DNA of 64,000 nt from Eledone cirrhosa (Eukaryota): assembly GCA_964016885.1 (NCBI GenBank), contig OZ024752.1, forward strand, positions 33,170,001 through 33,234,000. Direction: 5' to 3'. Of the stretch, positions 12,503 through 53,785 are shown one piece after another. A model generated the notes under the pieces. It was not told the DNA's origin. It saw only the letters and a program-made list of their open reading frames with translations, and did no database searches. Positions within the stretch are counted from its first letter, which is position 1. Every line of letters begins with the position of its first letter. A program made the translations under genes and the position numbers.

Positions 12503-13276
12503 ATATATATATATATATATATATATATATATATATATATATATATATATATATATATATATATATATCATCATCATCATCATCAGGTTTAGCGTCCGTG
12601 TTCCACGCTTGCATGGGTTTGGACGGGGGTTTTCCCATTTGAGGCAAGAGTGGTTGTCTTGCTCACATAGGACTGTCTGGCGGGTTTTCTACAGTTGGAT
12701 GCCCTTCCTAACACCAACCACATTTACAGTGTGGGGCTGGGAGGTTTTTACCGTGTTGCCTACACGGCCACATTACAGCGTGGACTGTCTGGCGGGTTTT
12801 CTACAGCTGGATGCCCTTCCTAACACCAACCACATTTACAGTGTGGGGCTGGGAGGTTTTTACCGTGTTGCCTACACGGCCACATTTACAGCGTGGACTG
12901 TGTGTTTTTTTGTCGTGACACCTACACGATCTCATTTGTTTCGGCCTGGATGGTGTGGCACCAACATAACTTTACATTGAAAGGGGCGGTGTGGATGGGG
13001 TGGAGGTGGTGGGACGGGGGGGTGTTTTGATAGAGATGCCTACTGAATATATATATTATATATATATATTATATATATATATATATATATATATTATATA
13101 TATATATATATTATATATATATATATATATTATATATATATATATATATATATGAATATAGACATAGAATATTCGAAAATATTCTGTATGTTTATAATAA
13201 ACATTTTGAAGACCTAATCGCTATAGAATAGAATACGTCACGTATTACAATTAGATTCTCGATAAAAGCAAGGGAA

Positions 13277-13319
13277 GTAATCTACGCGTTTCATTCTCGT
13301 TAGAAATCATCAGGACTAC
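13277..13319 (-). ncRNA. Type I hammerhead ribozyme (inverted copy of 13733-13775)
   Basis: Exact reverse complement of the plus-strand copy. Confidence 0.85.
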
Positions 13320-13732
13320 ATATCCAGTGCTTTTATCGAGAATGACACAGCTAGAGACTTATAGAATACTTAGCTGTGTACAGGAACTGGTTTGAAAGAG
13401 CGGTTGCCGGTCCGGCAGAAATTAGAAATTGGAATAAATGCTCTGAAATAGCGATATATATGTGAATATAGACATAGAATATTCGAAAATATTCTGTATG
13501 TTTATAATAAACATTCTATAGCGATTAGGTCTTCAAAATGTTTATTATAAACATACAGAATATTTTCGAATATTCTATGTCTATATTCACATATATATCG
13601 CTATTTCAGAGCATTTATTCCAATTTCTAATTTCTGCCGGACCGGCAACCGCTCTTTCAAACCAGTTCCTGTACACAGCTAAGTATTCTATAAGTCTCTA
13701 GCTGTGTCATTCTCGATAAAAGCACTGGATAT

Positions 13733-13775
13733 GTAGTCCTGATGATTTCTAACGAGAATGAAACGCGTAGATTAC
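13733..13775 (+). ncRNA. Type I hammerhead ribozyme (minimal stem III)
   Basis: GTAGTC-CTGATGA-T.TTCT(AACG)AGAA.T-GAA-ACGCGT-A/GATTAC. Predicted GUA cleavage after 13769. Confidence 0.85.
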
Positions 13776-15449
13776 TTCCCTTGCTTTTATCGAGAATCTA
13801 ATTGTAATACGTGACGTATTCTATTCTATAGCGATTAGGTCTTCAAAATGTTTATTATAAACATACAGAATATTTTCGAATATTCTATGTCTATATTCAC
13901 ATATATATCGCTATTTCAGAGCATTTATTCCAATATATATATATATATATATATATATATATATATATATATATATTATATATATATATATAATATATAT
14001 GATATATATATATATATATATTTTTTTTTTTTTTTTTCATGATTTTACCCTTTTATTAGCATGGTCCCATAACTCCTAAGGGAGTCATAGGGGTGTTGTA
14101 TTGACATACAACGTTTCTAGGGCATTTTGAAACCTGGCAGAGCCCCTCTCCAAGTCTGAATATAACAGATTTCTTGTAGAGAAGGATAGAGAGAGAGTGA
14201 GAGAATGGAAGTGAGGAAGAGATATAGAGAAAGAATGAACCCCAGTATTTGACTGGTACTTTTTTTTTGGCATTGAAAGGATGAAAGGCAAAGTTCACCC
14301 TTTCATGAGTATATATTTAATTAAATACACTGTATTTGGATTAATTAATGGAGTATTTGGAGGGATTTATTAAAATTATGATTTCATTATTAGGTTGATG
14401 TTTGTAACATAACTTAATAGATTTTTATATCAAATTATGTCAGATTTTAATTTAAATACAAACTCCTTAAAATTGGTTTTGTTTTGTAGAACCAGGGATG
14501 GTTTTGGTGTGAAGCCACATGACTTAATGGTTAGGATACTGAACTTATGAGTGTAATGTCGCCGGTTCGATTCGTGGGCAGGGTGCTGCGTTATGTTCGT
14601 GAGCAAAAGACTTTACTTTTCACGTTACTCCAGTATACTCATCTGAGACTAAGTACCAGCAGTAACTGGGGAATCAAACCTGCAATAGATTGGCATTATG
14701 TCCAGGGAGACTCTTGTACTCTTAGTTGCTTAATGCCAGGAAACCAGGGATAAGCACCAGCCTAATGAGCCTCTAGGCTCAAGATAGTACACTCCATTGA
14801 GAGTGAGTACCAGCAGTAGCTGGGGAGTTAATCCTGTGATAGACAAGCGTTCTATCTAGGGAGAGGCTTGTACTCTCAGTCACTTAATACCAAAGAAACC
14901 AGCGATAAACACTGGCCTAATGAGTCTCCAGGCTTGAGACATTACACTGTTGGTACTCAGTAGCTGGGGAGTTAATCCTGTGATAGACAAGCGTTCTATC
15001 CAGGGAGAGACTTGTACTCTCAGTCACTTAATACCAAAGAAACCAGCGATAAACACTGGCCTAATGAGTCTCCAGGCTTGAGACATTACACTCAGCTGAG
15101 AGTGAATACCAGCTACTGTTGGTACTCAGTAGCTGAGGAGTTAATCCTGTGATAGACAAGCATCCTATCCAGGGAGAGACTTGTACTCTCAGTCACTTAA
15201 TACCAAGGAGACCATGGATAAGCAGCAACCTCATCAGCCTTCGGTTTAGAACAGTTTGGGGGGCAGGTTGGTTGAATATCACTCTAACATAATATTGATT
15301 TCATACATAGGTATAGTTTTCTTAGAGTCGATGAATCAAAACAGAGGTTATGTGGTGTTTATGCCATTCACAAAAACATTTGCAATTCCAGTAAACTAGC
15401 TTTAACTGGATCAGAGTTGGGTACCTGCAAATGTAAATAAAGTATTTAC

Positions 15450-15556
15450 CTTGTGACCCGTCCATTCGAAATACACTGTTGAATTGTATCTGCAAGTCGT
15501 TTATGAACAAGAGCAAAGCGAATCAATGCCCTTCCTTTCCCTACAGCTGTGCGATA
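15450..15556 (-). CDS. FYCO1: FYCO1 coding exon 4 (RUN)
   Basis: YRTAVGKGRALIRFALVHKRLADTIQQCISNGRVT contains the RUN GKGRAxIR motif. AG/GT boundaries. Confidence 0.93.
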
Positions 15557-15646
15557 CTGTTTAAAGAGAAAAACAAACATATTGAGATATTTTACTATAA
15601 AAAAAAATTATTCAAAGTGATAAAGATATTCAGAGACAGAAATACT

Positions 15647-15865
15647 ATTTGTTGTTGTTATGAGAACGGTATCCTCAGATGAAATTCAATTTTGCGATAT
15701 GCCACTGGCAGGAAAAACACGTCCTTCTGCTCGTGTACCCAGCAGACATATCCTGCAGACATATGTCTGCCGGGCGCACAAGCAGAAGGACGTGTTTTTC
15801 CTGCCAGCGGCATATCACAAAATTGAATTTCATCTGAGGATACCGTTCTCATAACAACAACAAAT
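15647..15865. repeat. Long near-perfect fold-back palindrome (about 105-bp arms)
   Basis: ATTTGTTGTTGTTATGAGAACGG... / ...CCGTTCTCATAACAACAACAAAT. The mismatches I found are transitions. No TSD seen. Confidence 0.9.
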
Positions 15866-51745: not shown

Positions 51746-52248
51746 ATATATATATAATATATATATATAATATATATATATATATAATATATATATATAT
51801 ATATATATATATAATATATATATATAATATATATATATATATAATATATATATATATATATATAATATATATATAATATATATATATAATATATATATAA
51901 TATATATATATAATATATATATAATATATATATATAATATATATATAATATATATATATAATATATATATAATATATATATAATATATATATATAATATA
52001 TATATAATATATATATAATATATATATATAATATATATATAATATATATATATATAATATATATATATAATATATATATATAATATATATATATAATATA
52101 TATATATATAATATATATATATATAATATATATATATATATATATATATATATATATATATATATATATATATATATATATAATATATATATAATATATA
52201 TATAATATATATATATATATATATATATATATATATATATATATATAT
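51746..52248. repeat. Long interrupted (TA)n microsatellite; one of dozens of (TA)n, (CA)n and (TCA)n tracts
   Basis: About 500 bp composed only of A and T. Confidence 0.95.
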
Positions 52249-52303
52249 AGCAAGGCCAATGCTCTAACCACTAAGCCATGTGCCTTCATAAAATTTATAT
52301 ATA

Positions 52304-52472
52304 CCGTATTTCCAGGGGTCGAAGACGCTACTTTTTTCCTAAAATGTGTCTCAAAAATCTACCATGGGTCCTGGTGACTGAAGGGTGTTTATTATTTTTT
52401 TTTCAAATTTTTGGTTGTCAAAATTAGGGTGGGTCCTTGAGGACGAAGCGTCTTCGGCGCCGGGAAATACGA
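52304..52472. mobile_element. Tc1/mariner-pogo-type MITE (CCGTATTTC TIR, TA target)
   Basis: CCGTATTTCC..GAAGACGC / GCGTCTTC..GGAAATACG flanked by TA. Confidence 0.65.
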
Positions 52473-52499
52473 TATATATATACAAAGTAAAACCTACTA

Positions 52500-53200
52500 C
52501 AGTCAGTAGGCATCTCTAACAAAATACCCCCCCACCCACCCACCCCATCCACACCGCCCCCTTTCAATGTAAAGTTATGTTGGTCCCACAACATTCAGGC
52601 CGAAACAAATGAGATCGTGTAGGTGTCACGACAAAAAAACACACAGTCCACGCTGTAATGTGGCTGTGTAGGCAACACGGTAAAAACCTCCCAGACCCAC
52701 ACTGTAAATGTGGTTGGTGTTAGGAAGGGCATCCAGCTGTAGAAAACCCGCCAGACAGTCCACGCTGTAATGTGGCCGTGTAGGTAACACGGTAAAAACC
52801 TCCCAGACCCACACTGTAAATGTGGTTGGTGTTAGGAAGGGCATCCAGCTGTAGAAAACCCGCCAGACAGTCCACGCTGTAATGTGGCCGTGTAGGCAAC
52901 ACGGTAAAAACCTCCCAGACCCACACTGTAAATGTGGTTGGTGTTAGGAAGGGCATCCAGCTGTAGAAAACCCGCCAGACAGTCCACGCTGTAATGTGGC
53001 CGTGTAGGCAACACGGTAAAAACCTCCCAGCCCCACACTGTAAATGTGGTTGGTGTTAGGAAGGGCATCCAGCTGTAGAAAACCCGCCAGACAGTCCTAT
53101 GCGAGCAAGACAACCACTCTTGCCTCAAGTGGGAAAACTCCCGTCCAAACCCATGCAAGCGTGGAACAGGGACGTTAAACGATGATGATGATGATGATGA
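52500..53200 (+). mobile_element. Non-autonomous RTE-tail element with an internal 112-bp tandem expansion; copies at 12568-13045 (-) and 16180-16470 (-)
   Basis: Shares GTTGGTGTTAGGAAGGGCATCCAGCTGTAGAAA and AACCCATGC..GGACGTTAAAC(GAT)n with the RTE 3' UTR. Confidence 0.8.
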
Positions 53201-53747
53201 TAATGGTCAGCATCAACAGTTTTCCAAGAGATAGCAACATGAATGGACCTGTTATTTTTCTCTAACAATGTTTTTTTCCGATTCCACCCCACCCGTCTCC
53301 TCAATCTTTATGTTTCTTCTTTAATTTTTCATTCTATTTTCTAATAAAGGACTAGCGTCCGAAACATTAAGGCTCTTTTCCTACAATATCAATCGTAAAA
53401 CTAATAATATATTTCTTCTTTGTACTGTGTTGTTTGCTTTGTTATTTCTGGTTGCCTTTTGTCTATATATATATATAGATATATATATATATATATAGAT
53501 AGATATATATATAGATATATATATATAGATAGATATATATATATATATATAGATATAGATATATATATATATATAGATAGATATATATATAGATATATAT
53601 ATATATATTAGAAAGTGAGGTTTTTTTTACAAAATGAAAAATAACCGAGGTGTCCTACACGAGTGAAAGTATAAAGAAAAAGAGATGAAATCGAAAATGC
53701 AACTGGAGTCTTATTTTTTTTTTTTAAATATATATATTTATTTGGTT

Positions 53748-53785
53748 CCTTTACCGGTTTCGCAGTTCTTCTGCTTTTCAAAAGG
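53748..53785 (-). ncRNA. Minimal type I hammerhead ribozyme, U3-A8 core variant (family H)
   Basis: CCTT-TTGAAAA-GCAG(AAGAA)CTGC-GAA-ACCGGT-A/AAGG. Decayed relative at 37471-37511 (-) has stem II GCAT/ATGC. Confidence 0.72.

Follow-up and report, generated by a model that had tools for sequence, protein, structure and literature searches.

Type I hammerhead motifs at Penelope-like element ends and in retrozyme arrays of Eledone cirrhosa, likely copied by a Penelope enzyme

Hammerhead motifs in the window and in the genome

The DNA described here (the window; G000:C12:33170001-33234000) is a 64-kb stretch of the 3.0-Gb Eledone cirrhosa genome in which short insertions with the layout of type I hammerhead ribozymes lie among (TA)n tracts. 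Eleven hammerhead families can be counted in it, in agreement with the about 11 distinct sequence types of an initial annotation made from the letters alone. Six families are 5'-truncated 3' ends of Penelope-like elements (PLEs) and hold 11 motifs, four are retrozymes, short units repeated in tandem, and hold 7, and one, family C, is untraced; of the PLE-end families four (B, E, F and H) are assigned to the Hydra clade and two (J and K) appear to be Neptune-type. The hammerheads at the PLE 3' ends and those in the four retrozymes were likely copied by a Penelope enzyme.

A descriptor of the type I hammerhead (core CUGANGA or UUGANAA, stem II, GAAA, stem III, UH and stem I) gives 17 hits over the 64-kb window, of which 16 are motifs noted earlier; two stricter descriptors find 7 and 11. 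Dinucleotide shuffles of the window, 100 of each kind, give 0.24 hits each in 200-nt blocks and 0.12 in 1000-nt blocks, with a maximum of 2, and the reversed or complemented window gives none with the descriptor. A (TA)5 run lies within 200 nt of 16 of the 17 hits, compared with 30% of background positions. The Rfam hammerhead models, proposed in the initial annotation as a check, have no match in the window at gathering score, the only threshold run. The complete type I layout first reported at 19 coordinates is present at all 19, but only 16 pass the descriptor intact; the other three are point-mutated copies in which the closing pair of stem I is broken (the motif at 20553), C replaces U at position 16.1 (29738; the U is kept in 13 of 13 other listed copies of that family) or stem III has a single mismatch (50764). 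The CUGANGA core once ascribed to all of them is replaced at 50764, 51015 and 53748 by UUGANAA, the U3-A8 swap described in PMC4209133, and is found at the others.

In this genome the hammerhead-shaped motifs are genuine and very abundant. In a sample of 71 unselected 10-kb stretches (710 kb) there are 94 (132 per Mb), whereas each shuffle of all the stretches together gives 0-4, and the expected excess over composition-matched sequence thus holds outside the window as well as in it. So does the association with (TA)n, since 84 of the 94 lie at most 300 nt from (TA)5 (29% for background positions); a TA tract is found within 250 nt on the 3' side of 79 and on the 5' side of 40. Rough labelling with regular expressions places 42 of the 94 in families linked to an open reading frame (ORF) and 22 in monomer families, and leaves 30 untraced. 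Exact hammerhead matches in the whole genome number 13,346 for family A and 23,244 for family G, and exact pattern matches for family E number 33,530, with no match in the genome for the reversed patterns of the three. A raw extrapolation of the sample to 397,000 motifs was rejected, because these three exact counts are only 0.53-0.61 of what the sample predicts (0.57 overall); scaled by the factor of 0.57, the genome holds roughly 230,000 motifs, about 75 per Mb. Motifs are two to three and a half times as dense here as in the genome on average, and the dense population first noted is a rich portion of a genome-wide load, not unique to this place.

Ends of Penelope-like elements and their parents

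The initial annotation held that no motif encodes protein. Within the window nothing matches a Penelope protein; elsewhere, however, there are protein-coding elements whose ends correspond to six of the eleven types. Family H, the two-armed end of a young Hydra PLE, occupies 41337..41727, with hammerheads at 41463-41533 (-) and 41622-41692 (+). It is 99.5-100% identical to L365 (L-numbers denote comparison loci from the same genome), and the parent consists of tandem 3.9-kb units (3,896 nt) with an 821-codon frame that is uninterrupted in about 44 of 150 listed entries, counted by eye. In this protein and its relatives reverse transcriptase (RT) is followed by a C-terminal endonuclease in a single ORF, and RWR/RWK, DKT, CxCX5C, CxxC and CxH can be read from the translations; because this set matches the marks of the Hydra clade in the accessible text of PMC8557442, the parents of families B, E, F and H are assigned to that clade. 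These ORFs have no Pfam hit. Atlas neighbours of the Hydra-type protein carry HTH_animal and GIY-YIG, and its RT aligns weakly with L205 (E 8e-5). The parents have a hammerhead in the pseudo-LTR (LTR, long terminal repeat), partial tandems, an inverted copy and a tail.

Family E is present three times: as a two-armed Hydra PLE 3' end at 36633..37086 (hammerheads 36763-36827 (-) and 36978-37042 (+)), as a copy with the long of two ends at 48676..48964 (+; hammerhead 48770-48834), and as a diverged copy, again with the long end, at 49582..49795 (-; hammerhead 49711-49775). TA comes next in about 67 of 77 scored copies of its ends. A family F end lies at 37119..37260 (-; hammerhead 37198-37264) and a two-armed copy at 51226..51409 (hammerhead 51273-51333 (+)). 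In locus L308 (G000:C1:67879440-67882478) three tandem 222-nt units represent an internal deletion derivative of family F, each with the F pseudo-LTR end, the first ORF codons and the hammerhead, both ends being kept; as judged from its sequence, this is a retrozyme-like unit born from a PLE. The two-armed family B end is at 20639..20800 (hammerhead 20723-20772 (+)), and longer copies of this family have the C-terminus of a Hydra endonuclease about 240 nt upstream. At least 12 tandem 53-nt units, each repeating the 5' half of the B motif, precede an intact hammerhead in L333.

Families J and K have other parents. The J end at 53609..53817 (-; UUGANAA hammerhead 53748-53785) matches both pseudo-LTRs of L205 at 93%, and L205 has a 938-codon frame with RVT_1 and GIY-YIG hits. 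The K end at 20439..20616 (-; damaged hammerhead 20553-20591) matches the end of the ORF-bearing L208 at 92%, and the K hammerhead lies 408-445 nt behind the ORF in L208, L209, L211 and L216. Parents of both families have DKG, a CX4CxxC linker, RVT_1 and GIY-YIG, and the stubs are their pseudo-LTRs; these motifs suggest Neptune-type elements (Neptune or Nematis).

Three further insertions were missing from the initial annotation. At 35169..35609 is the two-armed end of a further Hydra family, which stops short of any recognisable hammerhead and is the same as the end beside the ORF in L023; a second window copy is at 47756-47947. A third Neptune-type 3' end, with a damaged hammerhead, is at 37359..37557 (-). 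At 37588..37779 is a two-armed stub of family M, whose arms meet inside the long hammerhead stem II, leaving half a ribozyme and a Hydra-type hairpin; additional M copies with half hammerheads are at 41768-41880, 47576-47703 and 49337-49510. A complete UUGANAA hammerhead occurs in 3 of 60 M copies examined, and the others do not reach the core. Two cDNAs may become joined at the stems of the ribozyme. M-type half motifs number 20 in the 710-kb sample, and the arms of family F often join at stem I. A pattern with the CUGANGA core was tried for M and abandoned, its 39 heterogeneous matches being read as chance or neighbours, since the M core is UUGANAA; in about 6 of the 39 the core and the start of stem II of another family are joined to the M 3' half, which local density could produce by chance. 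The untraced family C stub is at 29713..29805 (-; hammerhead 29738-29787, U16.1 to C). Its longer copies have a Hydra-type hairpin, and no PLE protein match was found upstream in the copies examined.

The initial annotation proposed a mixture of truncated PLE termini and non-autonomous hammerhead RNAs, mobilised by a TA-targeting PLE. The mixture is supported by RT/endonuclease parents for six families and by ORF-less tandem monomers in four; TA targeting likewise stands, and the single enzyme does not, since at least two PLE clades are involved. A PLE origin of the motifs can be held with high confidence.

Retrozyme families A, D, G and I

The remaining four families are seamless ORF-less tandems with one type I hammerhead per monomer, the monomers being 310 nt (A), about 340 nt (D), 424 nt with variants to 492 (G) and about 310-340 nt (I). 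Family A at 13153..13933 has two head-to-head arms between TA tracts, with the short end on the left and the long end on the right, hammerheads at 13277-13319 (-) and 13733-13775 (+), and arms that are 100% complementary over 372 nt. Family D at 34783..35110 (+) has its hammerhead at 34980-35037 and occurs genome-wide as partial tandems. Family G at 40212..41278 consists of two tandem monomers of about 424 nt and a short inverted arm (hammerheads 40442-40484 (-) and 40860-40902 (-)), and family I at 50603..51190 has two arms with UUGANAA hammerheads at 50764 (-) and 51015-51065 (+). One G array, L217, has 12 and 6 monomers in its two arms, about 99.9% identical.

The GC content of the A, D and G monomers is 36-38%, and their predicted circular folds are more stable than those of shuffles (z -3.0 for A, -8.5 for G over 420 of its 424 nt, and -5.7 for D). 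In an alignment of 9 related sequences of G and a sister family, 6 of 12 stem pairs change on both sides, 98% of cells are paired and the core is invariant. The alignment of A with I spans 65 nt at 82%, and a 3' module common to A, I and D can be seen by eye. Unit structure, together with GC content and fold in A, D and G, identifies the four families as putative non-LTR retrozymes, for which circular RNA is predicted. A search for expression listed no RNA data set with these sequences, which speaks neither for nor against their transcription. No ORF link was found in any A, D, G or I locus examined, save one chance neighbour, and no pseudo-LTR kinship to them among about ten PLE families compared. 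A pattern combining the hairpin described below with the Hydra N-terminal motif, tried for a parent of A and I, had 5 matches, all separate neighbours or chance. The ends of the retrozymes, examined for target site duplication, lie in TA tracts. Mobilisation of the monomers by PLEs is very probable.

Some further features of the monomers may be recorded. About 100 nt upstream of the hammerhead the G and D monomers have the octamer ATGCAAAT, which A and I lack. A promoter of the small nuclear RNA (snRNA) type, as in newt satellite 2, was considered for this octamer and dropped, as five U2 genes inspected had no octamer within 1.5 kb and no common element by eye. The U2 snRNA genes lie in tandem arrays at G000:C3:307.35-307.45 Mb (about 2.2-kb unit) and C13:36.17-36.18 Mb. 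The G monomer also holds its own short (TA)n run, whose length varies from unit to unit in L046 (482-492 nt).

Fixed ends, head-to-head arms and the cut site

Copies of every well-sampled family stop at two fixed positions. These lie 15-270 nt downstream of the predicted cut and are separated by 34-110 nt. Counted in nt past the predicted cut, the short and long ends are at 48 and 139 in E, 43 and 134 in H, about 17 and 93 in F, 36 and 102 in B, 77 and 143 in J, and, among the retrozymes, 130 and 164 in A, 136 and 176 in D and 212 and 271 in G. The arms of two-armed insertions combine these ends in a nearly fixed manner: 52 head-to-head pairs include 37 of a short with a long end, 1 of two short ends, none of two long ends and 14 unresolved, or 37 short+long among 38 resolved pairs with families pooled (G gives 6 and A 3). 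In family A, 11 of the first 15 loci listed have the minus arm followed by the plus arm, and none of the 15 has the reverse order. Opposite arms of one locus differ by 0.000 in A and by a median of 0 in G, compared with 0.020 and a median of 0.046 between loci (the pairs are non-independent).

At the other end the copies run through the cut site. The 5' breakpoints lie beyond it in 51 of 54 copies of E and 30 of 33 of H (all in loci that were not fetched on account of these two families), and 1 breakpoint of E and 0 of H are at most 3 nt from it; the corresponding histograms of F, J and K are confounded by subfamily divergence. Because copies cross the cut site, the RNA that was copied must have been uncleaved or else re-ligated or circular. 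A linear cleaved template was rejected, as the pile-up of 5' ends expected at the cut site is not seen.

A hairpin at the start sites

The sequence RCTC-(4-35 nt)-GAGY, a potential hairpin, is found at 9 of the 10 ends scored in Hydra families with a linked ORF, where it starts 3-10 nt beyond the end. It is also present at 4 of 4 further short ends, compared with 1.7% of random positions in Hydra loci; five long ends, where the reference ran into TA, were left unscored, and G and I were judged by eye only. The strict hairpin is absent at one other site and at 3 of 3 Neptune-type sites, and the A and D monomers have a predicted hairpin of different sequence at the same distance.

The RCTC half behind the long end was used as a predictor, and through it the parents of E and F were found. 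A search for the E long end followed by RCTC gave 32 matches, of which 25 were fetched and 6 dropped as duplicates; in 17 of the 19 distinct loci a Hydra ORF continues, and 16 of these 17 E parents have the GAGY half, which was outside the search pattern. The corresponding F pattern led to a Hydra ORF in 6 of 10 loci. Two more Hydra copies have the hairpin before the ORF. As far as the published consensus sequences, which include sea cucumber and coral elements with the hairpin, can be read by eye in the accessible source, Hydra-1_Ajap has two such hairpins before its ORF, Hydra-2_Ajap and Hydra-2_Amil have one behind the hammerhead and Hydra-1_Crog has a variant, while Hydra-1_Obim is not clearly readable. 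It is reasonable, with some reserve, to regard the hairpin as a start signal for reverse transcription.

Comparison with published systems

Hydra elements with hammerheads and (TA)n targets, and animal retrozymes, are both known, so that neither kind of component in the system first put forward as possibly uncatalogued is new; what is added here is a map of the insertion footprint, by which retrozymes are linked to PLE enzymes, and a candidate for the start signal. Hydra-1_Obim of Octopus bimaculoides has a hammerhead and a (TA)n target (PMC8557442, Craig et al. 2021). According to the accessible text of that paper, the Hydra clade shares with the present elements RWR/RWK, DKT, CxCX5C, the terminal CxxC and CxH, the pseudo-LTR hammerhead, (TA)n targets, partial tandems, an inverted truncated copy and a tail at one end. 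The differences are that at least eight families are found here whereas one is listed there for octopus, that the H unit is 3.9 kb whereas Hydra elements are "generally under 3 kb" (a descriptive, non-diagnostic trait), and that the tails are 65-110 nt as against 30-40. The twin hairpin, the near-strict short+long rule and the UUGANAA cores of some families go beyond the description in that text. With the Neptune/Nematis-type PLEs of the same source, J, K and the end at 37359 share DKG, CX4CxxC, RVT_1/GIY-YIG, the hammerhead pseudo-LTR and TA targets; unlike the Hydra ends, the Neptune-type ends here lack the Hydra hairpin.

In the parts of PMC7229834 and bioRxiv 10.64898/2026.07.22.740005 available to us, metazoan retrozymes are non-coding 150-450 nt tandems with one type I hammerhead, GC under 50%, stable self-pairing and coexistence with PLEs, like those described here, and a PLE is proposed as helper, argued from that coexistence and from pseudo-LTR kinship. 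Circular RNAs are reported from coral, mussel and axolotl retrozymes (PMC7229834), whereas the present arrays are known from DNA alone. The arrays here bear a PLE insertion footprint (two fixed internal ends, head-to-head arms and a TA target), while the word "inverted" does not occur in the accessible text of PMC7229834. The density of about 75 per Mb compares with as many as 120,000 copies, counted with a different descriptor, in axolotl, whose genome measures 28 Gb.

The Poseidon element PAc of Anolis carolinensis (PMC11167929, Frangieh et al. 2024) offers a biochemical parallel as described in its accessible text: two internal RT starts downstream of the hammerhead define its tail, both strands of the target are nicked and extended in vitro, and a dimer is predicted. 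The PAc starts lie within a stem-loop rich in A and C, and that text reports no difference between the strands, whereas here each Hydra end has its own hairpin and the pairs are almost always short+long. The minimal PLE hammerheads of PMC4209133 (Cervera and de la Pena 2014), so far as its text was available, resemble those found here in the palindromic short helix III, the extra base before helix II, the U3-A8 swap, the opposite-strand pairs 100-700 nt apart and the predominance of truncated copies; their counts are thousands per genome as against about 230,000 here. A search of the full-text literature, with most subscription papers outside it and Repbase and Dfam uncompared, turned up nothing published on the hammerhead load of octopus, on retrozyme arrays with two arms or on the RCTC...GAGY hairpin.

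Proposed mechanism and alternatives

A mechanism that would account for these features can be sketched as follows. The endonuclease would nick both strands of a (TA)n tract, and the two RT subunits of one dimer would start on one RNA at two internal sites, so that all copies would end at one of two fixed positions, usually abutting the TA tract; in Hydra elements each start would lie a few bases 5' of one RCTC...GAGY hairpin. Two cDNAs joined at their 5' ends would give the palindromic stubs. For a retrozyme the template would be a hammerhead-cut and re-ligated RNA circle, round which each subunit would roll to produce an arm of identical monomers, and the short palindromic stems III predict cleavage as dimers. 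That a Penelope enzyme copied both the PLE-end and the retrozyme hammerheads seems likely; for a circular RNA template of the retrozymes our preference is slight. More tentative is the proposal that tail and inverted insertions arise in one event, an enzyme dimer binding two hairpins, and that retrozymes are circles which have captured the twin start module.

Several points weigh against copying by a Penelope enzyme in this way. Self-cleavage, transcription and circles are deduced from genomic DNA. The hammerhead of PAc is dispensable for insertion in vitro, where uncleaved RNA is the main substrate (PMC11167929), and 8 of the 9 retrozymes from Xenopus failed to cleave, according to the accessible part of bioRxiv 10.64898/2026.07.22.740005. 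Neither a parent nor a helper was found for families A, D, G and I, and some G insertions (L067 and L075) have no flanking TA. Many of the head-to-head pairs were fetched with a long-end query, which leaves the absence of long+long pairs as their informative part, and one of the 9 sequences in the G alignment, that of the sister family, supplies most of the both-side changes. The RCTC...GAGY motif was defined after most families had been viewed; the F long end has GCAC...GTGC in its place in 4 of 9 copies, and the strict form is absent at 4 of 4 scored A and D sites, with looser variants in A, I and G by eye.

Each insertion could have been templated by a linear, multimeric RNA that was transcribed from an array already present and stayed uncleaved, with the hammerhead acting at some other step or being a passenger. 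Copies that read through the cut site are as compatible with uncleaved RNA as with circles, and the unchanged insertion of PAc hammerhead mutants and the non-cleaving Xenopus retrozymes agree with such a transcript. We nevertheless find it rather unlikely, though a serious contender: in the non-coding family G the stems covary around an invariant core, the arms are homogeneous within a locus while loci differ, and the monomers fold as circles more stably than shuffles. Moreover, arms as long as 10-12 units begin at those two fixed sites, and a circle would explain this with no need of a long source array. Growth of the arrays at the DNA level, by unequal crossover or slippage from single inserted PLE ends in the manner of satellites, has been proposed in the accessible text of bioRxiv 10.64898/2026.07.22.740005, and would suit both the internal TA run that changes between units of a G array and the occurrence of single-arm arrays; the two arms with their fixed polarity, the outer ends that obey the short+long rule and the thousands of dispersed loci with the same unit make it improbable.

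It is more improbable still that all the motifs are remnants of autonomous PLEs in decay, with no non-coding elements that propagate independently. Such fragments do account for 11 of the 19 window motifs and for the 42 sampled motifs in ORF-linked families, and the L308 monomer derives from a PLE end, but A, D, G and I are seamless units whose loci show no ORF link beyond the one chance neighbour, and the exact hammerhead copies of A and G run to many thousands. The chance that the motifs or palindromes are low-complexity coincidences or assembly artefacts is negligible. The missing Rfam hits and the perfectly complementary A arms in the window could be taken in that sense, but the shuffle and reversal controls are near zero, the reversed patterns are absent from the genome, older arms have diverged, and contigs of a public sequencing run, possibly from the source sample, densely cover the stretch with the G and H insertions.

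Other features of the window

A weak UUGANAA hit at 11930-11996 (-), 508 nt from TA, has two look-alikes in other loci. The open frames at 4677-5720 (-) and 7465-8187 (-) have an acidic coiled-coil-like composition and no convincing Pfam hit, and are probably host-gene exons. A short frame at about 56170-56300 (+) has a weak fatty acid hydroxylase hit (E 5e-4); we take it to resemble an exon of alkylglycerol monooxygenase. The segments 732-1931, 24485-25072, 38667-39281 and 56247-56624 are presumably RT fragments of the LINE (long interspersed nuclear element) type. Minisatellites lie at 17861-19028 (25-nt unit), 21917-23593 (60 nt), 26184-26628 (46 nt), 57512-58822 (130 nt), 58961-60135 (3-24 nt) and 63090-64000 (22 nt); the 60-nt unit resembles part of a dispersed repeat like a SINE (short interspersed nuclear element), with at least 12 copies.

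Significance

Pfam recognises none of the Hydra ORFs and Rfam none of the stubs, and much TA-flanked DNA in such genomes is therefore probably unlabelled; the accessible text of a 2026 curated octopus repeat annotation (PMC13282606) mentions neither ribozymes nor Hydra. Two questions are left open in the papers cited, namely which enzyme moves animal retrozymes and why PLEs possess inverted ends and an optional tail. From the mapped ends come precise start sites and a candidate RNA signal; together with young, nearly identical ORFs and non-coding substrates to match, they open both questions to direct in vitro tests. If retrozymes are indeed circles copied from twin start sites, this genome would carry the densest known ribozyme load and would offer a system for reconstituting retrozyme mobilisation.

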